21,171 nt of DNA from Candidatus Nanohaloarchaea archaeon (GCA_042217585.1 JBDGSJ010000019.1:1-21171), one strand, 5' to 3'; counted from the stretch's first letter, positions 1 to 21,171 are shown. Made by a program: numbers and translations. The notes: generated by a model not told the origin, from the sequence alone.

Positions 1-1
1 T

Positions 2-553: not shown

Positions 554-808
554 ATGGGAAAGATGGCTGTTGTTCTGAAGATAATGCCGGAAGACTCTGA
601 AACAGATCTTGATGAAATCGAGGAGCAGGTCCGTGAAAGGATAAAGGTTGACGATGTAGAGCGTGAAGAGGTCGCGTTCGGCCTGGAGGCGCTTAAGGTC
701 TCGACGATAACTACGGATGAGGAAGGAGGTACGGACCACCTTGAGAACGAGCTCGATGACATGGAGCAGGTCCAGAGCATCGAGGTCGAGTCCTTCAACA
801 AGATCTAG
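554..808 (+). CDS. ef1b: Translation elongation factor 1-beta (aEF-1beta)
   Basis: MGKMAVVLKIMPED...EEVAFGLEALKV...DEEGGTDHLE motifs of archaeal EF1B. Start placed at ATG 554 rather than GTG 545. Confidence 0.95.
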   Translation: MGKMAVVLKIMPEDSETDLDEIEEQVRERIKVDDVEREEVAFGLEALKVSTITTDEEGGTDHLENELDDMEQVQSIEVESFNKI

Positions 809-4522: not shown

Positions 4523-5968
4523 ATGAGACCTGTCGTCCTCGTCGTGATGGATGGAGTCGGACTGCGTGAGGAGAAAGACGGCAACGCATTCAAACAGGCC
4601 ACTACTCCCAACCTGGATTCACTGATGAACGAAGGGTTCGCCGAGATAAAGGCGGACGGTCCGGCCGTAGGACTGCCCGAAGGTTACACGGGCAACTCTG
4701 AGGTGGGGCATCTCCACCTCGGCGCGGGTCGAAGGATACCGCAGCGACTGACAAGGATAGACGACGCGATAGAGTCAGGCGAGCTACAGAAAAATGAGGC
4801 GCTGGTCGAGGCATACAGGTCCGCCGAAGAGAATAACTCCACGGTGCACCTCGCAGGCATAGTGAGCGACGGCGGGATACACGGACATATAGACCACCTG
4901 AAGGCCCTGATAGAGTACGCATCGGACTACAACGTCGATGTCAAGGTCCACGCCTTCACCGACGGAAGAGACGTCGATCCGAAGTCCGCGGAGAAGTTCC
5001 TCCAGGAACTCGAGGAGGTCTGCCTGAAGAACGGCGCCGAGATAGTATCCGTGATGGGGAGGTACTACTCGATGGACCGCGACCACAACTGGGAGAGGAC
5101 CGAGAAAGCCTACAGGGCGATGGCGCAGGGAGAGGGATACGAGTACAGCGAACCGGAGGAAGCGGTCCAGAAAGCATACGAGGACGGAGAATACGACTAC
5201 TTCATCCAGCCATCGGTCAAGGAGGGCTACGAGGGTATCGATGAGGCGGACGAACTTGTCTTCTACAACTTCAGGGCGGACAGGGAGAGACAGATCGCCG
5301 AGGCGTTCCTGAAGGAAGATTTCCAGGAGTTCGACAACCCCGTGAGGCCTTCGTTCACCTCCATGTTCCGCTACAGGAAGGACTTCGAGAACCCGGTCCT
5401 CTTCGAGAAGAACATCGTCGAGGACACCCTGGGAGAGAAGATAGAGGACGCAGGACTCTCACAGCTCCGCGTCACGGAGTCACAGAAGATACCTCACGTC
5501 ACCTACTTCTTCAACGGCCAGAGAGAGGTCCAGTTCGACCATGAGGACCGCGAATTCATAGAATCCGACAAGATAAAGGCCTACGACCAGGAACCCGAGA
5601 TGCACGCCGACGACACGACCGAGATCGTCCTCGAGGCCGTGGAGGAGGGAGAGAAGGACTTCATACTGCTGAACTACGCCAACGGCGACCTCGTCGGCCA
5701 CACAGGAGACATGGAAGCCGCGGTAGAGGCCATGGAGACCGTCGACAGGAACATCGGAAGGCTGGTCGAGAAAGTCCGGGACACGGACTACGTGCTGATG
5801 GTGACAGCGGACCACGGCAACTGCGAGGACATGGGAACCGGCGACTCGCCCAACACGTCACACACCACCAACAGGGTCCCGCTCATCGCCGCCAACACGG
5901 ACCGCGAGATCGAGGACGGCGAGATATGGGAGGTAACAGGAGTGATCGAGGAGTTGCTCGATGTCTAG
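4523..5968 (+). CDS. gpmI: 2,3-bisphosphoglycerate-independent phosphoglycerate mutase (bacterial GpmI type)
   Basis: VVLVVMDGVG, GNSEVGH (catalytic Ser), SDGGIHGH, DGRDV, GRYYSMDRD, NFRADR, HVTYFFNG, DLVGHTG, TADHGNCE and HTTNRVP motifs. Confidence 0.97.
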   Translation: MRPVVLVVMDGVGLREEKDGNAFKQATTPNLDSLMNEGFAEIKADGPAVGLPEGYTGNSEVGHLHLGAGRRIPQRLTRIDDAIESGELQKNEALVEAYRSAEENNSTVHLAGIVSDGGIHGHIDHLKALIEYASDYNVDVKVHAFTDGRDVDPKSAEKFLQELEEVCLKNGAEIVSVMGRYYSMDRDHNWERTEKAYRAMAQGEGYEYSEPEEAVQKAYEDGEYDYFIQPSVKEGYEGIDEADELVFYNFRADRERQIAEAFLKEDFQEFDNPVRPSFTSMFRYRKDFENPVLFEKNIVEDTLGEKIEDAGLSQLRVTESQKIPHVTYFFNGQREVQFDHEDREFIESDKIKAYDQEPEMHADDTTEIVLEAVEEGEKDFILLNYANGDLVGHTGDMEAAVEAMETVDRNIGRLVEKVRDTDYVLMVTADHGNCEDMGTGDSPNTSHTTNRVPLIAANTDREIEDGEIWEVTGVIEELLDV

Positions 5969-6237
5969 TTACACTGGTCTGCCAGTCCCCCATCGTAGTA
6001 CTTGTTACAGTTCAGGTCATTCCAACGGTCCTTCTGTGAATTGGTAGGTTGAGGGGTCTGCTCACCGCACTGGGTGGTCCTGAACTCCGTCACTACTATC
6101 TTGCACTGCGACTGGTTCGACTGCCGGTCCAGGAAATCCATGAAGCCGTAGGACTGGTTCTCCACCATCGACATGACCGCCAGCCCGGTGACCATTATCA
6201 CCGCGGCCGCGAGGACCAGCTCAAGGGTCTTGTCCAT
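5965..6237 (-). CDS. Pilin-like protein (90 aa) lacking a basic class III leader
   Basis: N-terminal hydrophobic helix MDKTLELVLAAAVIMVTGLAVMSMV and four Cys in the C-terminal part. Its ATG directly follows the stop of the upstream pilin. Confidence 0.7.
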   Translation of the reverse strand: MDKTLELVLAAAVIMVTGLAVMSMVENQSYGFMDFLDRQSNQSQCKIVVTEFRTTQCGEQTPQPTNSQKDRWNDLNCNKYYDGGLADQCN

Positions 6238-6573
6238 TTAACCACCGATTTTTCCACACAGAGCTTGGACCTGATCGCCTGCTTCAGCGGTATCTCCGGA
6301 ATTTAAACCTTTGAAGAGGTCTCCTATTCCGCCTCTCAGTCGTTCCTCGCCGCCGACCGTTCTGGTACAGGAGTTTGGAAGTTTTATCTGCATCTTATTG
6401 TTGTAGCCTCTGCACTTCCTTTCCAGCTGGGACTTGCATATCTGTTTCTGGGTGTCGGCACCTATCCCGAGGACGCCCTGGTTGAATGCGAAGATCACCG
6501 TGAGGGCGGCCATCATAAGGACCGATGCGGCGATTATGAGGTAGAGTATCTGTGAGAGGCCTTTTCTCTTCAT
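6238..6573 (-). CDS. Type IV pilin-like protein with class III signal peptide (111 aa); candidate major pilin
   Basis: MKRKG|LSQILYLIIAASVLMMAALTVIFAF, four Cys, and its own consensus TATA box. Confidence 0.85.
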   Translation of the reverse strand: MKRKGLSQILYLIIAASVLMMAALTVIFAFNQGVLGIGADTQKQICKSQLERKCRGYNNKMQIKLPNSCTRTVGGEERLRGGIGDLFKGLNSGDTAEAGDQVQALCGKIGG

Positions 6574-6595
6574 GAGTGAAGGTTTGGTTGCGCGG

Positions 6596-6603
6596 TATAA
6601 AAA
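6596..6603 (-). promoter_or_regulatory. TATA box TTTTTATA for the 111-aa pilin gene (leaderless)
   Basis: Consensus archaeal TATA box 23 nt upstream of ATG 6573. Confidence 0.65.
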
Positions 6604-6666
6604 GTTTGGAGGATTTGGGGTAGAAAAATGGGGAGTGGGCCTTGATGCCTTCCGGTGCGGAGGGTT

Positions 6667-6948
6667 TCAAGGCTGGGAGATGTCGATCTGGATGGATGAA
6701 ACGTTGAGATCGTCTCCTTCGTCGGTCTCTATCTGGTCTGTTCCGATCGAGATATCTTCTACCTCTGCTCCCTCGACGAACCTGTTCTTGATGAACTCCG
6801 CCACGTCTACTGCTGTCGAAATAGCCTGTCCTCGCGCCTTGACGTGGACCAGTTCGTTCCCTTCGTCGAACTGGGTTATCACGGCGAGGACATAGCTCAT
6901 GGCGGGTTTGTTCCCTATGTACACTGTGTTGTCGTCTTCTTCTGCCAC
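6667..6948 (-). CDS. albA: DNA/RNA-binding protein Alba
   Basis: NTVYIGNKPAMSYVLAV, VHVKARGQAISTAVDVAE, IGTDQI and NVSSIQI motifs. GTG start preceded by SD GAGGTGA, with TATA TTTAAATT at about 6985-6992. Confidence 0.96.
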   Translation of the reverse strand: MAEEDDNTVYIGNKPAMSYVLAVITQFDEGNELVHVKARGQAISTAVDVAEFIKNRFVEGAEVEDISIGTDQIETDEGDDLNVSSIQIDISQP

Positions 6949-7010
6949 TGAAAGTTCACCTCTATCCCGGTTTTATCTGTCCAAAATTTAAATTTCTACC
7001 GTCTCAGCCG

Positions 7011-8204
7011 CTAATCCTGTGTGTAGTCGTGGAAGTAGGGATCCACCACGAACTTCAGGTGCTTCCATCCCTCTGCCGTAGGTATCCTGTACTTCTGGTC
7101 CTGGTAAACTATCCTGAAGTTGCTGGATTTGATGGACATATCGACGTCTATCTCGTGGTAGTAATCCTTGTCGACCTCGATACAGTTGCCTTTCTTGTCT
7201 CTTTCGATACATTCTCTGTCGCAGACTCTACCTGTCTTGGTTACGTCCACGTCCCCGCTTGATAGAGCGAAATCATCTGTTTCTGCATAGCGGAGAGTTT
7301 CGCTAGGTCCTTCAACCTCTAAAGTCGGTATCTCGAACCCTTTTTTTTCCGGAAATTTTGATCTCACTTCGCTCATCGCTTCCCCTATCTCGTTCTGGGC
7401 GTCCCCTATAGCTTTCTCTTCGACGTTTTCTATCTCAGAATCACTGGGATATCTGCATGTCTCCCCGGATGCGGAGTAATCCGTCGGTACATCCCTCAGG
7501 TTCTCTCTAAGTTCTCTGACCGCGTCATGGGTCTGGTTGGCCAGCATCATGTACCGGTTGTCATAGGCTACTCTACGGGTCTGGTAGATGTTTTGGGGGT
7601 CTCCCTTGTAGCGGAAGGTTTTTTCGCTGAAAGTACATTTTATGCCTACTGCCTCTTTCCCGAAACGGTAGGTTATCCCGAAGTAGTTGAAGACGAATGA
7701 TGATGACAGCGAGAGAGGTATGTTGGTTCTCTCCCGCGGCTTCTTTCCCGAGTAATAGAGGGAAAGGTCGTCGTATGGTATGGATTTCAGTGCCATGTCG
7801 CCAGGGACCTTGCAGTTCGAGAAACCTGGTATATTTGTCTCAAAGATCTTAGCGTACTCGGCCCTGAAGGTCTCGTTCGTCCTGTATCTCAGGTTTTTAA
7901 TCAGTTTTTCGGCGGTGATTGTGGAGAGCGTATCGTATCTCCACCGGAGATCTTCTCCACCTCCTTTCTGGCCCAGGTCCCACGTTTTCTGGTGGGTCGA
8001 GTGGACGCCGGCGGTCGGCAGGTAGCTGTAGTAGTAGAAGTCGCCGTAGGACCTTGTCGCGGACATCCTGGTGAGGTCGTTGATCGAGTTCGCGACCTCG
8101 TTGCTGAAGGACTGGGATATAGGTATCGACTGGAACATCATCAGGGCTGTCATCAGCAGAAGCCCTATCATGGGAAGTATGCCGGATATACTGCCCTTTC
8201 TCAC
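7011..8204 (-). CDS. Large pilin-like/adhesin protein with class III signal peptide (397 aa)
   Basis: MRKG|SISGILPMIGLLLMTALMMF followed by a long soluble domain with several Cys. Its start overlaps the upstream stop. Confidence 0.75.
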   Translation of the reverse strand: MRKGSISGILPMIGLLLMTALMMFQSIPISQSFSNEVANSINDLTRMSATRSYGDFYYYSYLPTAGVHSTHQKTWDLGQKGGGEDLRWRYDTLSTITAEKLIKNLRYRTNETFRAEYAKIFETNIPGFSNCKVPGDMALKSIPYDDLSLYYSGKKPRERTNIPLSLSSSFVFNYFGITYRFGKEAVGIKCTFSEKTFRYKGDPQNIYQTRRVAYDNRYMMLANQTHDAVRELRENLRDVPTDYSASGETCRYPSDSEIENVEEKAIGDAQNEIGEAMSEVRSKFPEKKGFEIPTLEVEGPSETLRYAETDDFALSSGDVDVTKTGRVCDRECIERDKKGNCIEVDKDYYHEIDVDMSIKSSNFRIVYQDQKYRIPTAEGWKHLKFVVDPYFHDYTQD

Positions 8205-8785
8205 TGTCCGCCCACCGCGAATATGCTTCCTGAGGTTTTAACCCACATGGAGAAAGTGGCTTTCTGGCCGTTCGACAGCGCTATGGGATAGGATATCAAT
8301 GATCTCGTTCCAGTCGGCTCGTATGTTGAGACGGTTATATCGGCCGGTTTCTCTCCTTTCACGTTCCTTATCTCCAGGTGGTAATCCACTTTGTTCGGTC
8401 CCTGATGCCAGTATCTCTCCATCTTGTACTTCAGGTAGGTCTTCAGGTCCTTCTTCACCTCGGACCTGGGTATCTTCCTACCGTCTATGTATATGGCGTC
8501 TCCGGGAGTCGAGAAGTAGTAGGACACGATGCGGTAGACCTTCCTGTTGCCGTAGTCGTTCTTTACCCCGGGCGCCCGCCACATGTAGTCGTTCATGGTG
8601 TTAGTGACGACAGAGCGCTTCCGGACCTCTCCGAGTTCCGCCGATATCGTTGCTGTGACCTGCTGTTCGAAGAGATTCCCGACCCCCGTCAGGCTGAAGA
8701 GGAGGATTATATCCATCATGACGACTACAGCCATGACCATCGCCTCTCCGACTATCCCCTGGCCCTTACTTGATCGGGTAAACAT
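8201..8785 (-). CDS. Minor pilin-like protein with class III signal peptide (194 aa)
   Basis: MFTRSSKG|QGIVGEAMVMAVVVMMDIILLFSL. Confidence 0.8.
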   Translation of the reverse strand: MFTRSSKGQGIVGEAMVMAVVVMMDIILLFSLTGVGNLFEQQVTATISAELGEVRKRSVVTNTMNDYMWRAPGVKNDYGNRKVYRIVSYYFSTPGDAIYIDGRKIPRSEVKKDLKTYLKYKMERYWHQGPNKVDYHLEIRNVKGEKPADITVSTYEPTGTRSLISYPIALSNGQKATFSMWVKTSGSIFAVGGQ

Positions 8786-9308
8786 AGATCCTCACCGGTA
8801 GCCTCCTGTTGTAGTTTTTGCCCTTCCTGATTATCATAGCTGGTGCGAACACCACATCCCTCAGTGCGACTCCCTCCGGGCGTCTGTTACAGTCAAGTTT
8901 CCTGGGGTTTGTCGCGTGCTCCGAGAGCTCGTCCAGTTTCTTGATGTAGAAACCGAAGTTCTCTCCGTCCAGACCGGCGACCCTCTCGATGTAACAGTGG
9001 CCGTTCCTCTTCTTGTAACCTATCTCTCCGGTGCTGTCCTTCCTGTTCGTAAAGAATTCTGCAGGTATAAGTCCTCTGCGGTGGTCGTAGTAATAAGAGT
9101 TTTTGACGGTATTTTCCGCCCCTGTGGCTGCATCTACCGATATAGTGTTCTCCAGGACCACGGCGGACCGGTAAGCCTCCATGCTCTGGGCCTGTACGTT
9201 CTCGCTCAGCGCCACGAGCCCTCCGCCGTAAACGTTCACGGTCAGCGCGACGCCCGAGAGAAGCATCAGCGCATAGGGGATCTTGGTTATGAGGTTGTAG
9301 AGGTCCAT
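8766..9308 (-). CDS. Minor pilin-like membrane-anchored protein (180 aa; 193 aa if TTG 9347 is used)
   Basis: N-terminal hydrophobic helix IPYALMLLSGVALTVNV. ATG 9308 lies 1 nt after the upstream stop. The alternative TTG start would add an RRNG|SMD class III-like leader. Confidence 0.7.
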   Translation of the reverse strand: MDLYNLITKIPYALMLLSGVALTVNVYGGGLVALSENVQAQSMEAYRSAVVLENTISVDAATGAENTVKNSYYYDHRRGLIPAEFFTNRKDSTGEIGYKKRNGHCYIERVAGLDGENFGFYIKKLDELSEHATNPRKLDCNRRPEGVALRDVVFAPAMIIRKGKNYNRRLPVRIYVYPIK

Positions 9309-9309
9309 A

Positions 9310-9756
9310 CTACCATTTCTCCGGGCAATCGCCCGTTGAGATCTCAAGTCTTCCGTCCACGGTTTTGTGAAGACAGAGCAATTTCTTTATCCTGGTGAAG
9401 TCCTGGTTCGAGGCGGTTTCTTCATACGTTATATCGCTGTATCCGCTGCTGTCTTTCTCTATGGTCGCCTTGCCCGTGGTGTCCTGGTACTTTACTATTA
9501 TCCTCCAGTTCCCGCTACTCAGCTCTTTCACCCTGTAGAGGTAGTTCGACATCTCCAGCTCCATGTAGGTCCTGGGAGCGGACCGGGCGACCAGCGCAGC
9601 GTTCGCCAGCCTCTGGGCCTGTATCTTCGTTGTCTCTTCCTTCACGTAATCTGTCGTGTCTATCTGGACCGTGTATATGGCACCTATCAGTATCAGAAAG
9701 GTCACGACCGCCTCGATCATCGTGAAAGGCATCGATCCCTGGCCCTTGCGGTCCAT
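9310..9756 (-). CDS. Minor pilin-like protein with class III signal peptide (148 aa)
   Basis: MDRKG|QGSMPFTMIEAVVTFLILIGAIYTV and a C-terminal Cys pair. Confidence 0.8.
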   Translation of the reverse strand: MDRKGQGSMPFTMIEAVVTFLILIGAIYTVQIDTTDYVKEETTKIQAQRLANAALVARSAPRTYMELEMSNYLYRVKELSSGNWRIIVKYQDTTGKATIEKDSSGYSDITYEETASNQDFTRIKKLLCLHKTVDGRLEISTGDCPEKW

Positions 9757-10232
9757 CAGTCCACCCTTACGTCGATATCTATGGTAGGATGTTTTTTGTC
9801 AGCGTTCTCCGCCTCTATCCCTATCCTCCAGTCCCCGCTTGTTATCTTCCGGTAGTTGCTTTCCGGGAACTTGAGGTTGTACTTGCAGCCGCTGAGCTTG
9901 TAAATTACAGCTTTTCCATTAGCGGGCTCGTAGACCAGTCTGTACCTGTACTGCTCCGATTTTCTCAGGGTTATGTAGCCTGATGATCTTATGTCTATGG
10001 TCAGGTTGGCTGGTTCGGCGGCTCCGCCTACTGTTCCGCCTGTCACCGCCGCGCACTTCTTAGAAGCAGTCTTTCCCAGTTCGTTCAGTTGGCCCTCGTC
10101 CCACTGGCTGTTCGAGGTCTCGGCAAACATGTTCAGGAACTGTTTGGGTATCTGGATGCCGCCTATAAGAAGTATTATTACTCCGAGGACGACCATGACC
10201 GGCATACCCCAGGTACCTCCCTTTCTAGCCAC
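9756..10232 (-). CDS. Minor pilin-like protein with class III signal peptide (158 aa from GTG 10232; track gives 168 aa from 10262)
   Basis: MARKG|GTWGMPVMVVLGVIILLIGG, with SD GGAGGT just upstream of GTG 10232. Confidence 0.75.
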   Translation of the reverse strand: MARKGGTWGMPVMVVLGVIILLIGGIQIPKQFLNMFAETSNSQWDEGQLNELGKTASKKCAAVTGGTVGGAAEPANLTIDIRSSGYITLRKSEQYRYRLVYEPANGKAVIYKLSGCKYNLKFPESNYRKITSGDWRIGIEAENADKKHPTIDIDVRVD

Positions 10233-10434
10233 CTTTTCTACCTCCCTTCTGTCCGCAGACATCAGTGTTCTCCTGGTTGGCGAACACGCAGGAAATCTGG
10301 TTGCCTATATTGTTTGCGAAGCTTCCTATGTTGCTCTCCCCTCTGTCCAGCGTCATGCTTGCGATACCGTAGACTCCAGCCACGACGAGCAGAGCTACCA
10401 CGATAGCCACCAGTACCTGTACAGCGCTTCTCAT
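10225..10434 (-). CDS. Short pilin-like protein (69 aa) without class III leader
   Basis: MRSAVQVLVAIVVALLVVAGVYGIASM resembles the mature N-terminus of neighbouring pilins. It has a Cys pair and a TGATG overlap with the upstream gene. Confidence 0.75.
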   Translation of the reverse strand: MRSAVQVLVAIVVALLVVAGVYGIASMTLDRGESNIGSFANNIGNQISCVFANQENTDVCGQKGGRKGG

Positions 10435-10616
10435 CAGCTTACTATGTTACCCAGTGAGACCTCTATACCCAGGTTTTTCAGAGCGAAACTTTCCAGAAAG
10501 TTTCCTCTGGTGGTAAATATGTATGCAAGCGTTACTGCAACTATGATGCCCACCATTATGCTTACTATAACGCTGAGGCTTATATCCAGACCCTTCCTTC
10601 TCTTCAGCATCTTCAT
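10434..10616 (-). CDS. Short pilin-like protein with class III signal peptide (60 aa)
   Basis: MKMLKRRKG|LDISLSVIVSIMVGIIVAVTLAYIF, with an ATGA overlap with the upstream gene. Confidence 0.8.
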   Translation of the reverse strand: MKMLKRRKGLDISLSVIVSIMVGIIVAVTLAYIFTTRGNFLESFALKNLGIEVSLGNIVS

Positions 10617-10783
10617 GGCTGTGAAAGGCTGGGAAGGCCAGGTAGTCCCTGGATAAAGTTGTTGAGCAGGTTTTGAAGCTGGGACTGGAAGGCCGCGAAT
10701 ACCAGCGCGATAACCATCACACCGAGGACCATCATCGCCACGGTTTTGATGGACATGTCCAGTCCCTTCCTTTCTCCTCTCAT
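10613..10783 (-). CDS. Short pilin-like protein with class III signal peptide (56 aa), not in ORF track
   Basis: Manual translation MRGERKG|LDMSIKTVAMMVLGVMVIALVFAAFQSQLQNLLNNFIQGLPGLPSLSQP. TATA box 25 nt upstream; stop overlaps the next start. Confidence 0.85.
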   Translation of the reverse strand: MRGERKGLDMSIKTVAMMVLGVMVIALVFAAFQSQLQNLLNNFIQGLPGLPSLSQP

Positions 10784-10807
10784 TGTAGATAGATTCCTCT
10801 TTCGGGG

Positions 10808-10815
10808 ATATAAAA
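10808..10815 (-). promoter_or_regulatory. TATA box TTTTATAT driving the 10783-to-7011 pilin operon
   Basis: Consensus TATA 25 nt upstream of ATG 10783; the downstream genes overlap or abut one another. Confidence 0.65.
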
Positions 10816-10823
10816 GTCGAGTT

Positions 10824-12779: not shown

Positions 12780-12979
12780 CCCGTTATCGACACCCCCACC
12801 GTGTCCGCCACTATGCTGAATACTCCACGCATCAGCATACACATGGCTCCTGAGACGTTGTCAAGTATCGGTGTTACGCTGGCGAGGAACAGGAGGGCCA
12901 TACCCAGTGCGACTATCAGGACTATTATGCCGTTTATCGGCAGGTTTCCCTGTCCTTTTGATCTGCCAATTGGTTTCAT
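12773..12979 (-). CDS. Short pilin-like protein with class III signal peptide (68 aa)
   Basis: MKPIGRSKG|QGNLPINGIIVLIVALGMALLFLASV and a Cys pair. Confidence 0.8.
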   Translation of the reverse strand: MKPIGRSKGQGNLPINGIIVLIVALGMALLFLASVTPILDNVSGAMCMLMRGVFSIVADTVGVSITGC

Positions 12980-13038
12980 TCTGAGGCGGCCTGTTTACTT
13001 TTTTGTGTGATATTTGATAAGGTTTCGTCTCCTCCGGG

Positions 13039-13176
13039 TCAGTTCAGGAGGTTCTCGAACATCGATTTCATTATGTTCTCGATTCCCCCGGTTATCACTC
13101 CTATCAGGAGGGCCACGAATCCCAGGGATATCACTATTATCACCAGGACCTGCAAAGCGCTCATACCTTTTTTCAT
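13039..13176 (-). CDS. Minimal pilin-like protein with class III signal peptide (45 aa), not in ORF track
   Basis: Manual translation MKKG|MSALQVLVIIVISLGFVALLIGVITGGIENIMKSMFENLLN, with an ATGA overlap with the platform-protein stop. Confidence 0.85.
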   Translation of the reverse strand: MKKGMSALQVLVIIVISLGFVALLIGVITGGIENIMKSMFENLLN

Positions 13177-15311
13177 CCGCTTATACCACCCACTATGCCT
13201 CCGAACAGGAGGCTCACGATTATCACGGTCATCGTGTAGAAGAACACGCCGGAGATCATCACTTTTCCGACGAACAGGTTCTTGTAGGTGTCGTCCTCGC
13301 CATGGGTTATCTTCATGTAGAAGGTCCCGAGTATGTAGAGCAGCTGTATGAGGTAGAGTCCAACGACGAGCTGGAGGACCTCTGGGGGTATCACCGAGTC
13401 CGCCGCACCGAGACCTGTAGGCAGCCCGGTCGGCGCCCCTGTCTGGAGGTTCCCGGTCGCGCCCGAGAAGGACTGTCCGAGCGTGTAGAGAGCCCTTATT
13501 ATGGTCTGGGACATCCCGACGGCGACACCTGAGACTATGGGCGCCAGCAGGTAGGCAAGCATCTGGATAGTGGTTATTGTGTCCTCCATGTAGTCGTTGA
13601 GGTCCTCCTGGGTCTTGTGTATGTTCTTCAGGTACTTGGAAATCGTCATCATGGCGGTCGAGGCCATGTTTGTCCCCTTCTTGGATGACTCGATCACCGC
13701 CTTCATGACGGTCCTTATCATCTGGCTGGGGAAGTCCCTTATCGCGCCGTACTCATCGTGGAAGATGGACTCCTCAAAGGTCATGCCCATCTCCCTGACG
13801 TTCTGGGATGCCTCCCTGAAAAGGTCCGATATCTCAAGTTCGGAGGTGGATTCCGCGGCCTCCTCCAGTCCTTTCTCTATCGGTGTCCCGCCGGATATCT
13901 TGTTGCCGAGTTCGAACAGTGCGTTCGGGAACTGCTGCTCGATGTTCTCCAGTTTCTCCTCCGCGTCTCTCCTGTTGACGTTCCCGAGGTACTTCGTGAC
14001 TCCTATACCGAGACCCAGTCCGAAGACGAGCGACAGGCTTCTCATCAGCATCGGCATCGGAGCAAGTTTGTCCGCCGAGGCCTTGAAAAGCGGTGGGGCG
14101 GCCTGTATTGTGGTGTTCGAGGATACTGGATACGTGTGAGGGAAGTAGGCGTATCCGGCTATGCCGTATAGGCCGAAAGCCAGGAACAATAGGAGGCCTA
14201 TCGGCCAGACCGGTATCTTCCCTGAGAAACCCAGTATATCGATCCTGTACTTCCCGCGTTCCGGCAGAGTATCCTCGTCTATAGGTTCCGTCGATACTGT
14301 CGGAGGCCTGGAGCTCAGGGTTCTCTGCATGAACCAGTAGAGGAAACCGGGTAGAAGGATGTTGAACATGACGAAGAGATGGACTGGCGTTATCAGCCCG
14401 CCCATGAATGCCGTGATCAGCGGCAGCATTATCATGCCGAGGACCGGGAGCATCGCTCCCATGGCGTTGATTATCATGACCGGGGTCTCAAGGCTCTGGG
14501 CGTAGTGTTTCATCTTCTCCCGGGTCCCGTCCAGTATGTTGTCGATGGAGTCCTGGAGCATCCTCTCCATCCGGTCCTGGCCGGGCTCCTGCATCGCCGC
14601 CTTCAGAAGGGTCAGGGATTCCAGGAAGTCGTCGTTGTAGCCCTTCCAGCGGCGGGTGTAATCCTCCATCGCCTCCTCTATCCTGTTGTAGTTGCCGACC
14701 TCGAGGTCCCAGAGTATCCCTTTCAGGTCCTTCGATATAGGTCCCTCCAGGTTCAACGCGGCGAACCGGACTCCGCCCTCGAGGTTCGGCGAGGACCGCA
14801 TGTAGACGACCATGTAGAGTATGGCCAGTATCATCTCGCCGCTGCTCCGTATGACCTTGTTCTTGGCAGCGTACTTCGGCTTGAGATACGTGTATGCGCC
14901 CGCGGTCAGCGGCACCGAGAGGAAAAGTATCATCACTGTGACCGGTATGATCCCCACCAGCATATTGATGAGGAATATCAGGGTCCAGAAAAGCGTCCCG
15001 GTCAGGAAGACGCCGACCGATGCGGAGAGGACCATACCCGGCGTGATGTTCCATCCGAGTAGTTTTATCGGATCGTTGAGGCTTTCCTGTACTGACTCGT
15101 CTGCCTTCAGGTGGAATATGTTTGCGTAGAGGTTGCAGAGTCTCTCGTACCGGTTCTTGGACTTCGAGTGCTCCGTTTCCTCCTTGAACTCCTTGTAGGC
15201 ACGCGAGTAGCTGTCCTTGTCGGAGGTGTCGTAAGGAGGCATCTCGACGTCCTTGTCGAGGTCCTCCAGTATGTCGTTTATCCTTTCCTCCTTGTCCTCG
15301 TCATCGGGCAT
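13173..15311 (-). CDS. Type IV pilus platform membrane protein (T2SSF family; TadC/PilC/ArlJ-like, two cytoplasmic domains)
   Basis: Multiple TM segments, two T2SSF-like units (MVVYMRSSPNLEGGVRFAA...; FPNALFELGNKISGGTPIEKGL...), directly downstream of the ATPase. Confidence 0.9.
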   Translation of the reverse strand: MPDDEDKEERINDILEDLDKDVEMPPYDTSDKDSYSRAYKEFKEETEHSKSKNRYERLCNLYANIFHLKADESVQESLNDPIKLLGWNITPGMVLSASVGVFLTGTLFWTLIFLINMLVGIIPVTVMILFLSVPLTAGAYTYLKPKYAAKNKVIRSSGEMILAILYMVVYMRSSPNLEGGVRFAALNLEGPISKDLKGILWDLEVGNYNRIEEAMEDYTRRWKGYNDDFLESLTLLKAAMQEPGQDRMERMLQDSIDNILDGTREKMKHYAQSLETPVMIINAMGAMLPVLGMIMLPLITAFMGGLITPVHLFVMFNILLPGFLYWFMQRTLSSRPPTVSTEPIDEDTLPERGKYRIDILGFSGKIPVWPIGLLLFLAFGLYGIAGYAYFPHTYPVSSNTTIQAAPPLFKASADKLAPMPMLMRSLSLVFGLGLGIGVTKYLGNVNRRDAEEKLENIEQQFPNALFELGNKISGGTPIEKGLEEAAESTSELEISDLFREASQNVREMGMTFEESIFHDEYGAIRDFPSQMIRTVMKAVIESSKKGTNMASTAMMTISKYLKNIHKTQEDLNDYMEDTITTIQMLAYLLAPIVSGVAVGMSQTIIRALYTLGQSFSGATGNLQTGAPTGLPTGLGAADSVIPPEVLQLVVGLYLIQLLYILGTFYMKITHGEDDTYKNLFVGKVMISGVFFYTMTVIIVSLLFGGIVGGISG

Positions 15312-15314
15312 TTT

Positions 15315-17570
15315 CTACACCTGCTGGTCCAGCCATTCCTTCCACCGCGCGTAGATCCTCTCGGGCTGCTGCTCGCCGTATTCCTCGTTCACCCTCTCCG
15401 CGATTATGTGGTACTGCTGGTTTGCCTTCACCACGAAATCAGCCTCCAGCATGTCAGGACGGTCCTCCTCGTTCGCGGTCTCCACCAGCGTCTGCTTGAC
15501 CCTCTTTCTCAACTGGATGTTGTCCCAGACCGCCTCCCAGTCGTTCTTCCACTCCCTGATGTTCTCGGCTATCCTGTTAAGTATCTCGGACTGGCCGTTC
15601 TTCAGGGTGTCAGTGGGAACGAGTTCGTCCTTATTTGAATCGTAACGCATCAGATCCACGAAGGCGCCTTCCTCCATAGGGTCGTCGGTCCAGGTCTTCC
15701 TGACCTCCGTTATACCTGTCACACGCCGGTAAGTCTGCAGACCGTCCGGACTCTTGATCTTGTTGACGCTTACGATTATGTCCGTCGCCTTGAAGGAGGT
15801 CCTCGGCACGTTGAGGTCGTTGACCACGCGGTCGAAGACCGAGTAGGCGTCCTCGCCGTGGATCGTTCCCCCGACGAAGTTCGCGACCGCGCCGACACGC
15901 ATAGCCTCGTAGAGCGCCTGAGCCTCGTCCGACCGGACCTCTCCGATGACCAGCGCGGAGTCTCCCAGCCTGAGCGAGGTCCTTATTGCCTCGTCCGCCG
16001 GCATCTCGTTCTCGACCTGCGTGATGACCGACTGCGACTTCATCCTTTCGATGTTGTAGCCCAGGCCCTTCATCTGGTTGACGGGTAACTCGAGCGTGTC
16101 CTCCACCGTCACTATGCGGTGGTTCTTCATTATCTCCAGCATCGAGGCACCGAGCAGCGAGGTCTTGCCTGCTCCTCTAGTGCCCGAGAAAAGCACGGAC
16201 CTGTTTCCGTCAACTATGAATGATATCAGCGCGGCGCCCAGGGGGTTTATCATGTCGTTGTCGATGAAGAGAGGGAGTGTCCAGGCCTTTGACCTGTGCC
16301 GCCTGAAGGCGAACGCCAGTCCCTCCGGGGACAGGTTCTCCTGTATGACCGCCACGCGTGCTCTTCCGCCGGGTACGTCGGTCTCGGTGTCCAGCACAGG
16401 GTTGGCCTCGTCCAGCGGCCGTCCTGACTGTATCCTGAAGCGGGTCGCCCATGACTCCGCTTCCTCCTTCGTAGGTATCAGGTTGGTCTTGCACTCCTCG
16501 TACTCCTGGTGGTTCACGTATATCGGAGAGCTTCCTATCGGAGAGTTTATGAAGACGTCCTGGATTTTCGGGTCCGCGAGCAGAAGTTCGAGGACGCCTA
16601 GGCCCGAGGTGTATCTGTTCAGGATGGAGGCGAGTTCCTCGAGCTCGTCCATCGACAGGTTTATGTCCATCTGGCCGGCGATGTCCCTGAGCATGTCCTT
16701 GCCTATGTTCTCGAACACCTCCTGCATCCTCTCCGGACGGGCGAACTCGCCCTCCTCCGGGGAGTGAGACGCCATGAAACGTCTCGCCGCATCGAGAAGA
16801 GTGTACTTCTCCTCCGGCAGGTTGAACTCCGGGGGATCGACGTGGTAGACGTTCCTGGTCTCCTCCGGGGTGTCGTATATCGAGACCTCGATGTCCTCCC
16901 TGACCGAGTACCTGTCGATCTCCTCACCCCTCTCCGGGGGAAGAGACATGTACTTCGTAAGCATGAAGTTGGGACGGACCAGCGGATGGAAGAACTCCCT
17001 GTATATCTCCCTGTCGCCGATGTGGTGGCCGGTTATGTAGTCTTGGGCTCTCTCTATCATCTCTGTTTCCTCGAGTATGCCCATCACCGGATCTACAACG
17101 TCCTCGATGAAATGCTGGAGACACTCTTTCTGCTGGGGATAGCCCTCGTCCTGGTCCTGCTTCAGGTGTCTCTTTTTCCTCTTCAGCCTGACGTAGGCGC
17201 CGATGGGATCCCTCCTCATGTGATCGAAGACTATCTCCTGGGCGTCCGGCAGGTGCTGGCTGTAAACGTTGCTGCACTCGTCCCGCCTGACCTCCTTCGA
17301 GAGGTATCCCTGGCTGGAGATGTCCTGTATGGCGCCGGCGATCTCCTTCAGCATCCGGACCTGTTCCTCTCCGTACTCGTAATCTCTTGACTCGGAGAGG
17401 ACGACCGAGTTCGCCTCCGGGACCTCCTGAAGTATATTGATAACCCTTGACATGACCTGGGGGTAGTCCTCGATGGAGGCGCCGTAGATGGAGCCGAGCG
17501 TGTTCACCCGGACCGTGTGGGTCTCGTCGTCGTACTCATAGTCGAAAACGTCTTTGTCAGTCAGTGCCAT
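15315..17570 (-). CDS. Type II/IV secretion-pilus assembly ATPase (VirB11/TadA-CpaF/PilB-ArlI family), 751 aa
   Basis: Walker A GTRGAGKTS, Asp box VTVEDTLEL, Walker B LRLGDSALVIGEVR, His box GTIHG, and GLGVLELLLADPKIQDVFIN. Confidence 0.95.
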   Translation of the reverse strand: MALTDKDVFDYEYDDETHTVRVNTLGSIYGASIEDYPQVMSRVINILQEVPEANSVVLSESRDYEYGEEQVRMLKEIAGAIQDISSQGYLSKEVRRDECSNVYSQHLPDAQEIVFDHMRRDPIGAYVRLKRKKRHLKQDQDEGYPQQKECLQHFIEDVVDPVMGILEETEMIERAQDYITGHHIGDREIYREFFHPLVRPNFMLTKYMSLPPERGEEIDRYSVREDIEVSIYDTPEETRNVYHVDPPEFNLPEEKYTLLDAARRFMASHSPEEGEFARPERMQEVFENIGKDMLRDIAGQMDINLSMDELEELASILNRYTSGLGVLELLLADPKIQDVFINSPIGSSPIYVNHQEYEECKTNLIPTKEEAESWATRFRIQSGRPLDEANPVLDTETDVPGGRARVAVIQENLSPEGLAFAFRRHRSKAWTLPLFIDNDMINPLGAALISFIVDGNRSVLFSGTRGAGKTSLLGASMLEIMKNHRIVTVEDTLELPVNQMKGLGYNIERMKSQSVITQVENEMPADEAIRTSLRLGDSALVIGEVRSDEAQALYEAMRVGAVANFVGGTIHGEDAYSVFDRVVNDLNVPRTSFKATDIIVSVNKIKSPDGLQTYRRVTGITEVRKTWTDDPMEEGAFVDLMRYDSNKDELVPTDTLKNGQSEILNRIAENIREWKNDWEAVWDNIQLRKRVKQTLVETANEEDRPDMLEADFVVKANQQYHIIAERVNEEYGEQQPERIYARWKEWLDQQV

Positions 17571-17613
17571 CCCAGCATTATTTTATTCGGGTGGCGTCAA
17601 ATTAAAAGATAGG
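17571..17613. promoter_or_regulatory. 43-bp divergent promoter region between the pilus ATPase and the coiled-coil gene pair
   Basis: TTTTATT at 17581-17587 (plus) and TTTTAATT at about 17600-17607 (minus), each roughly 27-30 nt from the respective ATG. Confidence 0.5.
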
Positions 17614-18051
17614 ATGGCTGACAACGATCTGCTGAACCAGATAGTGGACCGGGTGAACGACTTCAACCGGCGTGTCCGGGACCTCGAGGAGAAGGTAAGG
17701 AACCTCAATGCCCGGGTGAACACTCTTGATGACTCGCTTCTCAAGAAGACGAAGTCGCTCAGCAACGATATCCAGGATATAAACGACGAGATAAGCCAGG
17801 TCAGGGACCGCATCGCGAACCTCGAGGTGGACATTAAGGAGATAAACAGGGAGAAGAGGAAGTACGTCACTTCCCAGGAGCTCGAGGAGATCGAGAACTA
17901 CATGGACCTGATGAACCCCATCAACTCCGCTTTCGTCACCAAGAAGGAGGCGAAGGAGATGGTCCAGGACGCGGTGAACACGGATCAGGGAGTGACCGAG
18001 GAGGAAGTCGAGGAGATAGTCGACAGAAAGATAAAAAAGCTGGAAGAGTAA
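17614..18051 (+). CDS. Hypothetical coiled-coil protein (145 aa)
   Basis: The likely start is MADNDLL at 17614 (the track start overlaps the ATPase). Long heptad repeat followed by LEEIENYMDLMNPINSAFVTKKEA. Confidence 0.85.
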   Translation: MADNDLLNQIVDRVNDFNRRVRDLEEKVRNLNARVNTLDDSLLKKTKSLSNDIQDINDEISQVRDRIANLEVDIKEINREKRKYVTSQELEEIENYMDLMNPINSAFVTKKEAKEMVQDAVNTDQGVTEEEVEEIVDRKIKKLEE

Positions 18052-18107
18052 ACTGGATTAGACGCTCTGGAAACCCTTAAATTCGAGGGAAATTAAAGGT
18101 TAGTTAG

Positions 18108-19034
18108 ATGAAATTCGAGCTCTTCGGAAGACTCCGGGACAATGACGAAAATCAGGATGGAGAGAACGGCTCGTCAGGAGATTTCGAGTCTTCCTCATCC
18201 GAGCTCACGGCTGGAGAGCTTGAGCAGACGGTCGAGGACATGTTCTCGCAGGGTTACTCGGAGGAGGAGATCAAGCAGGAGCTCTCGGGACAGTACTCGG
18301 AGACGGAGATCAACAGAGCGATCAACAATACTGTTACAGCCTCTGCCACGGCGGCGGAGGAAGAGTTCGAGGGAGGACCTGAACCCATGACACCTTACGA
18401 GGAGGACCAGGAAGATGAGGCAGTCAGCCCCATGGACGAGGGCTATGGAGGATCCGAAAACTCCGGACAGGAAACAGGGAACATGAACAACCCGCCCGGT
18501 CCGGGAGGAGGGTCCGAACAGCAGGGCATGGGGTCCTCTCAGCCACCGGTCCAGCAGGATCAGGGGATGCAGCAGACAAACCCTGCCAGACAGAACCAGT
18601 CTCAGTCCGGTTCCAGGCGGTCAGGTGGCGGGGTCGATGCGGAGACCGAGGAACTTATCGAAACTATAGTCGCGGAATACTTTGACAGGGTTCAATCAAA
18701 GTTCGACCAGGTCTACGAGGAGCTGGATCTTATAGAGGAGGAGATGGAGAACCTGGAGAGCAGGGTCCACGACCTCGAGGTCCGGGACGACGAGGACCAG
18801 GAACAGTTCGTACAGAAACTGGATGAGGTCGAGGAACACATCGATTCCTACGAATCAAGGATCGGAGGGCTGGAGAAGGCTTTCCAGCAGGTACTTCCCT
18901 CCCTTGTCGACAACGTCAGGGACCTTACCGATCTCGTGCAGGAGATCAAAAGGGAGAGAGGGATGGAGACTGAAACGTCGGTCTCCAGTCAGGACATGGA
19001 AGACGTCGACATGGAAGAGATGGAGGACTGGTAA
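18108..19034 (+). CDS. Hypothetical protein (308 aa): small helical domain, Q/G/P-rich disordered linker, C-terminal coiled coil
   Basis: GYSEEEIKQEL helical motif, low-complexity linker, TEELIETIVAE...GLEKAFQQVLPSLVDNVRDL. TATA-like CTTAAAT at about 18076-18083. Confidence 0.85.
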   Translation: MKFELFGRLRDNDENQDGENGSSGDFESSSSELTAGELEQTVEDMFSQGYSEEEIKQELSGQYSETEINRAINNTVTASATAAEEEFEGGPEPMTPYEEDQEDEAVSPMDEGYGGSENSGQETGNMNNPPGPGGGSEQQGMGSSQPPVQQDQGMQQTNPARQNQSQSGSRRSGGGVDAETEELIETIVAEYFDRVQSKFDQVYEELDLIEEEMENLESRVHDLEVRDDEDQEQFVQKLDEVEEHIDSYESRIGGLEKAFQQVLPSLVDNVRDLTDLVQEIKRERGMETETSVSSQDMEDVDMEEMEDW

Positions 19035-19088
19035 CTCTCTCGTCGAAAAATATTTTTGTGGTCCTTCTTCAGTTGACCTGCTCCGCTA

Positions 19089-19577
19089 CTATTCTCCCGC
19101 CAGGTAGACCACGGTTATTATGAACACCAGTATCAGTATCGGCATCACGACCTCCTCGAAGACCGGTCCGTCGGTAATCTGGGTCCCGCCGCCGTAACCT
19201 ATCAGGACGCTCACGAAGGAGACGACCGCTATGATACCTATCACGACTTTCATGAGCCCTCCGCTGTTCTGGACGTATTCCTCAAGGTCGATCCCGGCGA
19301 CCCCGGACAGTATAAGCAGGCCGACCACTCCGAAGACCGCGAACGCTATGTTGGCGGCGAAATGGGTCCACATGCCTTCCGGGGCGAACCTCCAGATCCC
19401 GAACAGGAACATGAACGAGACCGCCAGCGCTATCACCCCGTTTATCTGGCTGTCCTCGCTTATGGCCTGGTACTTGTCGAGGACTCCGTAGGTGACGGCG
19501 AAGACCAGGAGCCATGAAAGCAGGAGGTTCATGCCCTCCTCGTACATGAACATGACCACCTGGTCTACAGCTCCCAT
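19089..19577 (-). CDS. Multi-pass membrane protein (about 5 TM, 162 aa)
   Basis: Hydrophobic segments LLLSWLLVFAVTYGVL, INGVIALAVSFMFLF and others; SD GAGGTGA upstream. Confidence 0.85.
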   Translation of the reverse strand: MGAVDQVVMFMYEEGMNLLLSWLLVFAVTYGVLDKYQAISEDSQINGVIALAVSFMFLFGIWRFAPEGMWTHFAANIAFAVFGVVGLLILSGVAGIDLEEYVQNSGGLMKVVIGIIAVVSFVSVLIGYGGGTQITDGPVFEEVVMPILILVFIITVVYLAGE

Positions 19578-19586
19578 CTAATCACC

Positions 19587-20144
19587 TCAGTCTATGTCCT
19601 CCATCATCTTTTCCAGCATGGAGGTCCCGTCTTCTTCGTCCTTTTCCTCGCCGCCGCTGGTGGTCCACCAGATCGTCCCGGCGACAAGCACCAGCCAGAT
19701 CAGGCCTTTCTCGAACAGAAGGGTGGAGAGAGATCCGATTCCCTTGAGTTCAAGGCCTATACCCAGCAGTCCCTGGATCCCGCCGGAGAACCCGAACGCG
19801 ATCACGGCCAGCACCACCAGGAGCCAGAGGAAACCTCTCTTCCTGTAGTGCTTGGGCTCGACTCCGGACATGCCGAACAGCATGAACAGACCGAGGAGTC
19901 CCAGCATCGCCAGCGTGATCTTGAAGAAGAACTGCTGGAAGAACAGCTGGTAGGTAGGATTCTGTGATATGTAGAACGAGGTGAAGAAAGCTGCGGCAAG
20001 TGATACAACGCTCGCCAGCCTCTGCTCCTCCTCGAAGAGGTGGACCTGCTTCAGCGAGAGGAATATAAGCACGTATGTAAGCAGGAAGGGTAGTATAACC
20101 CGGTAGAAATCGTACTGCGCCAGAGGCTGGACGATATCTACCAC
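19587..20144 (-). CDS. Multi-pass membrane protein (about 5 TM, 185 aa), paralog of 19089..19577
   Basis: VILPFLLTYVLIFLSL...LASVVSLAAAFF aligns by eye with the downstream gene. GTG start; acidic C-terminal tail. Confidence 0.85.
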   Translation of the reverse strand: MVDIVQPLAQYDFYRVILPFLLTYVLIFLSLKQVHLFEEEQRLASVVSLAAAFFTSFYISQNPTYQLFFQQFFFKITLAMLGLLGLFMLFGMSGVEPKHYRKRGFLWLLVVLAVIAFGFSGGIQGLLGIGLELKGIGSLSTLLFEKGLIWLVLVAGTIWWTTSGGEEKDEEDGTSMLEKMMEDID

Positions 20145-20148
20145 TCAG

Positions 20149-20421
20149 TTATTCACCTGCGGCGAGGTGCTCGTCCAGCCTTCTGTTGAGCAGCCAGAGT
20201 TCCCTCCCGATTATCATCAAGCTGAGCATGATTATCCATGGAGCAATGTTCTTCCCGAACGCGATCATGTCGAAGGAGCTACTGCTGAAGAACAGGCTCC
20301 AGACAGTGACCACTATCGCGCCGAAGGAAAGGACCGCTATAAGGAACTCGTCCAGGATGTTTTCGACGTCGTAAAGGAATTCGTGGAACATCTTGTTTTC
20401 AAGCTCTTCTTCGTCTGTCAT
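20149..20421 (-). CDS. Small 2-TM membrane protein (90 aa)
   Basis: Two hydrophobic helices (FLIAVLSFGAIVVTVWSLFF; IAPWIIMLSLMII) and an acidic N-terminus. Confidence 0.8.
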   Translation of the reverse strand: MTDEEELENKMFHEFLYDVENILDEFLIAVLSFGAIVVTVWSLFFSSSSFDMIAFGKNIAPWIIMLSLMIIGRELWLLNRRLDEHLAAGE

Positions 20422-20431
20422 TGGAAAACAC

Positions 20432-20566
20432 CTACAGACCTCCCATCCGGTTGCGCCTTGAAATCACTCTCTGGATTTTCGCCAGCACGAAACCAGCTGC
20501 CATTCCCACCACTACGACCGTCGGGTTGTTCATCAACTGGTTAACCACGTTCTCAACGAAGGCCAT
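20432..20566 (-). CDS. Small single-TM protein (44 aa), not in ORF track
   Basis: Manual translation MAFVENVVNQLMNNPTVVVVGMAAGFVLAKIQRVISRRNRMGGL. SD GAGGT upstream and TATA TATTTAAA at about 20603-20610. Confidence 0.75.
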   Translation of the reverse strand: MAFVENVVNQLMNNPTVVVVGMAAGFVLAKIQRVISRRNRMGGL

Positions 20567-20631
20567 TTTTGATACCTCTTAACGGTTATTTATCGGTTGG
20601 CGTTTAAATATTTAGGATTTCTCCCGGTCTC

Positions 20632-21171
20632 TCACTCCTTTTTCGCCAGAGCCCTGACCTCTTCCCACTCGTCCTCTATGTTCTCTATCGATCTCATCAC
20701 TTCGTTCAGGTGCTCCTCCTCTTCCTCGGAGAGATGTCTCTTGATGCTGTTGAGTTCTCCCTCCTCCTTGTCCAGTTCCTTCACCACTTTACTTACCTCG
20801 GCAATTTCCTCTTCCTCCCTCTTTCTCTCCTTCTTCAGGTTGTCTATCTCTTTCTGGACCTTTTTCTCAAGTTCCTTCTTCCTGTTGACGATCTTGTTTA
20901 TCTCTTCGACTACCTGTTTCGTCTCCTTCTCCTCTTCCTGTATCTTCTCCCAGTCAGTCTGGTCGCTGTACTTTCTCGCCAGCTTCTCGGCGTTCTTCTC
21001 CTCCTTCTCGAGCTCCTGGGCCAGTTGCTCCAGTTCCTCTTCCTCATCATCGAGCTCCTTGAGTTCCTTCTTGACGCCCTTCAGTTGCTGGAGGGTTCCC
21101 GCTATCTCCTCGTGGGCCTCTTTCTCCATCCGCAGCGCGTCCTCAATGTCCTGGAACTCCTTCTTGTTCTC
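20632..21171 (-). CDS. Charged (E/K-rich) coiled-coil protein, 5'-truncated by the window edge
   Basis: The frame stays open from 21171 (ENKKEFQDIEDALRMEKE...) to the stop at 20632, with a heptad pattern. Confidence 0.8.
   Translation of the reverse strand, partial: ENKKEFQDIEDALRMEKEAHEEIAGTLQQLKGVKKELKELDDEEEELEQLAQELEKEEKNAEKLARKYSDQTDWEKIQEEEKETKQVVEEINKIVNRKKELEKKVQKEIDNLKKERKREEEEIAEVSKVVKELDKEEGELNSIKRHLSEEEEEHLNEVMRSIENIEDEWEEVRALAKKE

Follow-up and report, generated by a model that had tools for sequence, protein, structure and literature searches.

In type IV filaments, a peptidase cuts the basic leader of each subunit after a K/R-G pair, and an ATPase and a platform protein polymerize the subunits. 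Among the systems described in DPANN archaea, the closest to the one treated here are two conserved loci that encode CpaF, TadC and coiled-coil proteins and occur across cluster-2 DPANN archaea; proteomics detected several proteins of the set formed by both loci, coiled-coil proteins included (Hamm 2024, PMC11291902). According to Makarova 2016 (PMC4858521), the ATPases of subclade 4F often have a cysteine-rich N-terminal domain, the haloarchaeal system of this subclade has an intracellular coiled-coil protein, and a nanoarchaeal ATPase belongs to the same subclade, without identifiable pilins. Sivabalasarma and Albers 2026 (PMC13705601) put forward the hypothesis that N-terminal extensions of these ATPases bind subsystem-specific accessory proteins, and their census reports that type IV filament genes rarely lie in a single locus in Nanobdellati. 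Here we analyze a stretch of 21,171 nucleotides from a Candidatus Nanohaloarchaea archaeon (GCA_042217585.1, JBDGSJ010000019.1:1-21171; hereafter the window), which is the entire contig C11 of genome G000 (0.98 Mb, 89.7% complete). It carries a locus in which the genes for a 751-aa secretion ATPase and for a platform with two domains in one chain are accompanied by 13 pilin-like genes, a divergent pair of coiled-coil genes and several consecutive membrane genes. Judged from these genes, the locus is very probably a type IV filament assembly machine, and we favor, with moderate confidence, the view that it is the DPANN version of the subclade-4F pilus machine, making a cell-contact pilus for host capture or adhesion. 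An earlier note on the same DNA had taken the locus for a complex pilus/adhesion or contact-secretion system with uncharacterized non-pilin partners. The locus is not unreported: its core is already in print (Hamm 2024; La Cono 2023, PMC10266531; Makarova 2016), and the window itself therefore comes as no surprise.

The assignment to subclade 4F is carried by the motor. The ATPase gene (15315-17570, minus strand) encodes a VirB11/CpaF-type secretion ATPase that matches Pfam T2SSE (E 6.9e-15), with Walker A, Asp box, Walker B and His box all intact. Its N-terminal region has about 215 extra residues; in orthologues this region contains zero to nine cysteines, and those at positions 99 and 150 are present in 50 and 51 of 70 orthologues, respectively. 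In a tree of the ATPase core obtained by a quick method (48 sequences, thin reference sampling that includes no true ArlI, Epd, Aap or Ups protein, and warnings for long branches and unusual composition), the window ATPase falls with 20 DPANN orthologues and two Haloterrigena proteins, one of them from a locus labelled 4F, in a single clade of 23 rows with a Shimodaira-Hasegawa-like approximate likelihood-ratio test (SH-aLRT) value of 100, and bacterial TadA/CpaF are placed outside it. The ATPase is assigned to a DPANN branch of subclade 4F. The top plasmid match of the ATPase is the Haloterrigena turkmenica ATPase, with 39% identity, compared with 28-29% to the paralogues in G000 itself, and its nearest relatives (76-83% identity) are in records named Nanohaloarchaea. 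The platform (13173-15311, minus strand, 712 aa) has two Pfam T2SSF stretches in one chain and is TadC/arCOG01814-like. It matches the Haloterrigena subclade-4F TadC, the arCOG01814 protein of NC_013747, at 24% over 583 aa (E 2e-38), whereas its match to the genome's own other platforms reaches an E value of only about 5e-4. In the supplement of Makarova 2016 (PMC4858521), the TadC at the same Haloterrigena coordinates is labelled arCOG01814 and subclade_4F, and the tree listing of that paper has a 714-aa protein of Nanoarchaeum equitans, NEQ425, and the 747-aa ATPase of Nst1 next to the haloarchaeal group. The ATPase and the platform can therefore be assigned to subclade 4F of the archaeal type IV pili.

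The maturation enzyme would be supplied in trans. The earlier note had seen no archaellin, no ArlH-like ATPase and no prepilin peptidase, and indeed none of the three is matched in the window; a peptidase is nevertheless encoded elsewhere in the genome, at G000:C6:20052-20375 (PF01478, above cut-off; contigs of the same genome are written in this way, other genomes bear G-numbers and the loci of relatives L-numbers). Several further observations concern motor genes. The region G000:C6:16295-20834 places a third secretion ATPase beside this peptidase and a protein of 711 aa whose N-terminus contains a helix-turn-helix-like segment, a layout similar to that in L224 and L229, and some relatives have a fourth ATPase type. 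Six of 41 genomes (G005, G012, G020, G022, G028 and G039) have large in-frame insertions near ATPase residue 490, with open frames of 1125-2013 aa. These insertions, all at the same site, are consistent with inteins and recur in longer homologues that a distant query retrieved; longer homologues bear PF14890 and PF14528, intein and homing-endonuclease families. In L047, L085, L087 and L101, two platform-like genes in opposite orientations flank the ATPase, with pilin-like genes after the upstream one instead of the coiled-coil cassette.

The pilin-like genes form an array of 13 co-oriented open reading frames, whose products measure 45-651 aa and all have a single hydrophobic helix at the N-terminus. 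The earlier note had described an ATPase, a platform and 13 co-oriented genes with pilin-type N-termini; the counts, the orientation and the helix are borne out, but a class III-type motif (K/R-G followed by a hydrophobic stretch, in a relaxed test) is found in ten of the 13 only, and a gene for a chromatin protein interrupts the array. Across the genome, 27 of 1301 crudely called open reading frames pass the relaxed test and nine of these are on the window contig, which places the pilin cluster far above chance. A strict FlaFind-like pattern is passed by two of the 13.

All genes of the array are on the minus strand, and in the following a slash marks the predicted cut. The first of them, p1 (13039-13176), encodes a mini-pilin of 45 aa (KG/MSAL) that passes both tests. 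It is followed by p2 (12773-12979), a mini-pilin of 68 aa with two cysteines (KG/QG, relaxed motif), and by p3 (10824-12779), a large pilin-like protein of 651 aa with ten cysteines and no Pfam match, which is a candidate tip adhesin; the protein in this position measures 322-808 aa in relatives. A TATA-like box precedes p4 (10613-10783), a mini-pilin of 56 aa (KG/LD) with a weak Flp1_like match below cut-off (E 0.009). Next come the mini-pilin p5 (10434-10616, 60 aa, KG/LD, relaxed motif) and p6 (10225-10434, 69 aa), which has a hydrophobic N-terminus and no KG motif and has homologues in related loci. Three genes are minor-pilin-like and pass the relaxed test, namely p7 (9756-10232, 158 aa with an assumed GTG start, KG/GT), p8 (9310-9756, 148 aa, KG/QG) and p10 (8201-8785, 194 aa, KG/QG). 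Between the last two stands p9 (8766-9308, 180 aa), pilin-like, without a KG motif and 50% to its orthologue in L054. The second large pilin-like protein, p11 (7011-8204, 397 aa), has six cysteines and is 24-27% to its orthologues. The interrupting gene (6667-6948, minus strand; TIGR00285), between p11 and p12, encodes the chromatin protein Alba, which is not a pilin and whose position is conserved in the family. Behind it, with its own TATA-like box, lies p12 (6238-6573, 111 aa, KG/LSQI), which passes both tests and is the pilin most consistently present in relatives, and finally p13 (5965-6237, 90 aa), which has the N-terminal helix and no KG motif and is duplicated in some relatives. The layout is kept: of 14 loci examined, the 13 printed have 8-11 genes separating the platform from Alba.

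The claim that the genes fall into promoter-led blocks has been confirmed. TATA-like boxes lie 28-44 nt upstream of seven of eight block-leading genes, compared with one of nine internal genes, against a background of 0.062 per 27-nt stretch. A separate idea, that basic pilins bind an acidic host surface, was considered and rejected: near neutrality extends to the other single-helix proteins of G000 (median -0.025, n=67), and the pilins of relatives are mostly acidic. As an observation in its own right, surface proteins of G000 are near neutral (median net charge -0.025) compared with its acidic cytoplasmic proteins (-0.098).

On the other side of the ATPase stand the coiled-coil genes, reported by the earlier note as a divergent pair and found as such. 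The gene ccA (17614-18051, plus strand) encodes a 145-aa coiled coil with no hydrophobic segment and with a conserved C-terminal motif, ENYMDLMNP..S.F.T; it is present in 17 of the 18 genomes of the phylum of G041. The product of ccB (18108-19034, plus strand, 308 aa), which is weakly similar to ccA, consists of a conserved N-terminal peptide, a small helical domain, a variable low-complexity linker and a C-terminal coiled coil. Neither protein has a signal or membrane segment. The start codons of the ATPase and ccA are separated by a 43-bp spacer (17571-17613), in which a TATA-like box lies about 30-38 nt before each start. It is likely a bidirectional promoter, and in all ten family loci printed the spacer is similar in length (41-46 bp) and sequence.

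Convergent to ccA and ccB, and forming a separate transcription unit, are four membrane genes (20566-19089, minus strand). The first, m1 (20432-20566), lies after a TATA-like box and encodes a single-helix membrane peptide of 44 aa, and m2 (20149-20421) a membrane protein of 90 aa; both are seen in family-level loci only. The 185-aa product of m3 (19587-20144) is a paralogue (BLAST E 1.3e-5) of that of m4 (19089-19577), a 162-aa protein with about five helices that belongs to an unannotated DPANN membrane family. A profile of m3 and m4 retrieves 2,923 cluster representatives at E values up to 0.001. The family gave no Pfam match, no sequence match in the PDB (best E 0.037) and no structure match in the Atlas at a template modeling (TM) score of at least 0.5; it is present in tandem copies, two to seven per genome, in 18 of 18 genomes. 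In L103, L115 and L112, it has expanded to four to six tandem copies beside ccB.

The earlier note had added another coiled coil to these four genes. The four membrane genes stand, but the coiled coil (20632-21171, minus strand) is the C-terminal tail of a membrane-anchored protein of about 494 aa that starts at G000:C21:1000. The final 55 nt of the window are the first 55 nt of G000:C21, this 55-mer occurs at those two places only, and across the overlap the frame is continuous, with the start 333 codons into C21 and three hydrophobic segments on the C21 part; counterparts of 485-489 aa are found in L054 and L056. Since the membrane genes continue onto G000:C21, the locus is interrupted by the contig end. 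The region G000:C21:1-3475 (minus strand) contains the start of the protein of about 494 aa, a membrane protein of 569 aa that ends in a coiled coil, and two further membrane proteins of 139 and 97 aa, and counterparts of these membrane genes sit at the same place in relatives.

The earlier note had also linked the flanking genes to the ATPase, and they do recur with it in other genomes. We counted loci with at least 4 kb of sequence upstream of the ATPase in which ccA, ccB and at least one gene of the membrane family lie within 6 kb. The cassette is present in 30 of 38 loci from named genomes (of 54 fetched), in seven of nine loci (of 13) that belong to the phylum of G041, and in 24 of 40 metagenome loci (of 80), or 20 of 36 when four nanohaloarchaeal-like loci are left out. 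In most positive loci, gene order and orientation are as in the window, down to 45-57% ATPase identity. Ten of the metagenome ATPases were looked up; two fall in clusters named Woesearchaeota and one in a cluster named Nanoarchaeia. The membrane and coiled-coil cassette placed head-to-head with the ATPase recurs in Nanohaloarchaeota, Aenigmatarchaeota and Woesearchaeota. The suggestion that these partners are lineage-specific has to be given up, as they span several DPANN phyla.

The motor itself is widespread. The N-terminal 330 residues of the ATPase are found, with one strong match each, in 45 of the 52 genomes of the phylum that are at least 80% complete and in 27 of 28 high-quality ones, and all 18 genomes of the phylum of G041 have the ATPase. 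The locus is a leading candidate for the attachment structures of DPANN archaea, since its motor is near-universal in both phyla tested and has a single copy there. Identity to the nearest relative is 83% for the ATPase, 79% for ccA, 69% for the platform, 61% for m2, 55% for ccB, 52% for m4, 36% for m3 and 27-56% for the pilins, and in a farther family member BLAST recovers just two of the 13 pilins. By these comparisons, the motor stays about 80% identical within the family while the pilins diverge fast, and a constant motor combined with surface parts that change fast would fit the recognition of variable partner surfaces.

In the favored reading of the locus as a cell-contact pilus, the parts could work together as follows. 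The mini-pilins without a globular domain (p1, p2 and p4-p6), or else p12 and p13, would form the shaft; p7-p10 would be minor pilins, and the cysteine-rich p3 and p11 variable tip adhesins. Expressed from the short divergent promoter region that they have in common with the ATPase, ccA and ccB may form a cytoplasmic scaffold, and this scaffold may tie the extra N-terminal region of the ATPase to a patch of small membrane proteins. Both the host contact and the physical partnership of the parts are what we infer, and a number of points weigh against this reading. A filament, its binding and contact with a host are predictions from the genes. Three of the 13 pilin-like proteins (p6, p9 and p13) lack the K/R-G motif, and none of the 13 exceeds a Pfam or NCBIfam cut-off. 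The three sets of loci used for the co-occurrence counts may overlap, and related genomes are not independent samples. The cassette is not beside the ATPase in eight of 38, two of nine and 16 of 40 loci of the respective sets. In N. equitans, the ATPase and the platform are scattered among housekeeping genes, and in many distant loci the platform has no pilin-like neighbors.

Two further points of this kind also bear on a possible, though doubtful, alternative, namely that the locus combines two neighboring systems, an ordinary 4F pilus and an envelope module that is separate from it. The module, made up of the membrane family, ccA, ccB and the membrane-anchored coiled coils, would serve in membrane shaping or cell-pole organization and have no more than a promoter region in common with the pilus. 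In four genomes, ccA and the membrane genes are found together on a contig other than that of the ATPase, and in others all are apart. In addition, none of the six proteins tested from the Haloterrigena 4F locus is a homologue of ccA, ccB or the membrane family below an E value of 0.01. That the membrane genes form their own convergent transcription unit likewise agrees with a separate module. On the other hand, the persistence of order and orientation at 45-57% ATPase identity and the conserved length of the divergent spacer speak against a separate module, and Locus 1 of G000 (see below) also has its own coiled-coil gene beside pilins. It should be noted that the envelope-module alternative is compatible with a contact pilus.

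It seems unlikely, but deserves consideration, that the machine builds a short pseudopilus rather than a long adhesive one and serves secretion or uptake in the manner of type II secretion or a bindosome, with the minor pilins acting as a piston or tip complex and the small membrane proteins oligomerizing into a channel for proteins, DNA or metabolites. Such a function would suit the many minor-pilin-sized genes with no single obvious major pilin, the tandem copies of the membrane family in every one of the 18 genomes and the unusually conserved motor, and adhesive pili could be made by the two other type IV filament ATPases of G000. However, no ComEC-like, HerA/VirB4-like or binding-protein match was obtained among the window genes, the membrane family has no transporter match, and the fast-diverging, cysteine-rich large subunits better suit adhesins.

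We regard as improbable, but worth stating, the idea that the locus encodes the organelle by which cluster-2 DPANN archaea attach to their hosts, as seen by cryo-tomography in Nanobdellales. The ATPase and the platform would then be its portal, the 4F motor would extrude a mini-pilin tube of 7-8 nm into the host, and the membrane family, ccA, ccB and the membrane-anchored coiled coils would build the surroundings of the portal or the repetitive cone or its base. If true, this would mean that a type IV filament has been repurposed as a feeding or injection conduit. The molecular identity of the organelle is stated to be open (PMC11104419), its tube measures 7 +/- 1 nm in the same paper, and a second report gives a filament of 8.2 nm and at most one organelle per cell (10.64898/2026.06.04.730037); the near-universal, single-copy ATPase, the retention of a 4F ATPase by N. 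equitans and Nst1 (PMC4858521), and look-alikes of m4 and ccB in clusters labelled Nanobdellota, which are leads only, would also agree. Nevertheless, the cone is placed on the outer side of the membrane (PMC11104419), which is at odds with ccA and ccB lacking any signal or membrane segment; typical type IV pili are 4-6 nm wide (10.64898/2026.06.04.730037), and the nanohaloarchaeon described in the available text of Hamm 2024 (PMC11291902) has a close membrane apposition rather than a cone.

The last alternative, a divergent archaellum operon as suggested for what is apparently the same operon of cultivated nanohaloarchaea (PMC10266531), is scarcely credible and, judged by archaellins, ArlH and ArlC/D/E, largely refuted: automatic names like 'flagellar protein FlaI' on ATPase homologues and a weak FlaC match on ccB (E 0.00035) are outweighed by the 141.9 bits of the window ATPase on the ArlI model, far below the cut-off of 550 and below the two other secretion ATPases of G000 (408 and 310), by the lack of any archaellin in the 89.7%-complete genome and of an ArlH gene in the locus, and by the absence of a FlaC match over cut-off in 52 genomes. 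The earlier note's statement that this is not an archaellum is thereby upheld. A resemblance of ccA and ccB to ArlC is, by the same FlaC result, not supported; the weak FlaC matches listed for the 52 genomes end at or before position 45 of the 55 model positions, and FlaC is not among the 25 families listed for the ccA alignment.

To the left of the pilus locus, the window contains genes for FEN1, two acidic coiled-coil proteins and phosphoglycerate mutase. The two coiled-coil proteins (1998-3563 and 3637-4470, minus strand, 521 and 277 aa), which stand between FEN1 and phosphoglycerate mutase, are very acidic (36-42% D+E) and have weak matches in some family loci. Before FEN1, a small cysteine-rich open reading frame (230-394, plus strand) is presumably zinc-ribbon-like, and a short acidic one (about 560-808, plus strand) presumably resembles elongation factor 1-beta. 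Rfam and ARAGORN gave no matches on the window; by eye, positions 1-147 (minus strand) resemble an intron-containing tRNA gene, possibly for Arg with anticodon GCG, which neither program reported. A scan of the window for sigma-70 promoters and terminators, a type of scan not applicable here, remained at chance level.

The locus bears on how DPANN archaea find, hold and feed on their hosts. It appears to be a well-conserved DPANN pilus machine whose coiled-coil and membrane partners are conserved and little studied, and the link to subclade 4F provides a genetically tractable haloarchaeal relative as well as named targets for proteomics and labeling in existing co-cultures.

The comparison with known systems places the locus as follows. 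The contig G000:C5 encodes PilA-like pilins and has one coiled-coil gene beside a chaperonin gene, which is the layout of Locus 1 of Hamm 2024 (PMC11291902), and the window has no GroEL/PilA context of this kind; by elimination, therefore, the window locus would be their Locus 2, matched by gene layout. Locus 2 consists of a CpaF-like ATPase, TadC and two coiled-coil proteins, and is reported in Nanohaloarchaeota, Woesearchaeota, Aenigmarchaeota and others. In the figure legend of that paper, filament proteins are given for Locus 1 only, whereas in the window 13 pilin-like genes follow the platform. The membrane family and the divergent spacer are not described in its text passages, although its supplementary datasets may list membrane or pilin genes. 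The paper likens the coiled coils to a viral attachment protein, a comparison that contrasts with the lack of export signals in both ccA and ccB. The operon of La Cono 2023 (PMC10266531), an annotated gene pair within a run of up to 22 hypothetical genes, lies directly after a phosphoglycerate mutase gene (SVXNc_1002, BNXNv_1066), as the window locus does. From this gene context, the two appear to be the same, although that operon was interpreted as archaellum-like, a reading rejected by the tests on the window locus.

With subclade 4F (PMC4858521), named subsystem 4F in Sivabalasarma and Albers 2026 (PMC13705601), the locus shares the extra, often cysteine-bearing N-terminus of the ATPase, a single arCOG01814-type platform and, in the haloarchaeal version, a coiled-coil accessory protein (PMC4858521). 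It differs from the euryarchaeal 4F systems in that the window shows no sign of a cetZ2 neighbor or, by Pfam and NCBIfam matches, of PilA-family pilins (arCOG02981/arCOG10216), and whereas Makarova 2016 reports that cognate pilins were not found in nanoarchaea, pilin-like genes here adjoin the motor. A single example in Makarova, Wolf and Koonin 2019 (PMC6393860, Fig. 2A) comes close, with an island of DPANN dark-matter proteins next to an ATPase and TadC; these proteins have signal peptides and, by prediction, are diverse pilins. The pilins without a globular domain and the many minor pilins recall the Epd pilus (system 1) and bacterial Tad/Flp (PMC13705601), but Epd system 1 has two platform genes where the window has one fused 712-aa platform. 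The window family is an exception to the 2026 census, probably missed since its pilins escape the profiles. In the openly readable literature consulted, we found no account of the membrane family and no link between Locus 2 and subclade 4F. In summary, the core of the locus was already known, and what the present comparison adds to it is the linkage of the membrane and coiled-coil cassette, a fuller parts list that includes the pilin array, the likely bidirectional promoter and an unannotated membrane family with about 2,900 clusters, and the connection with subclade 4F.

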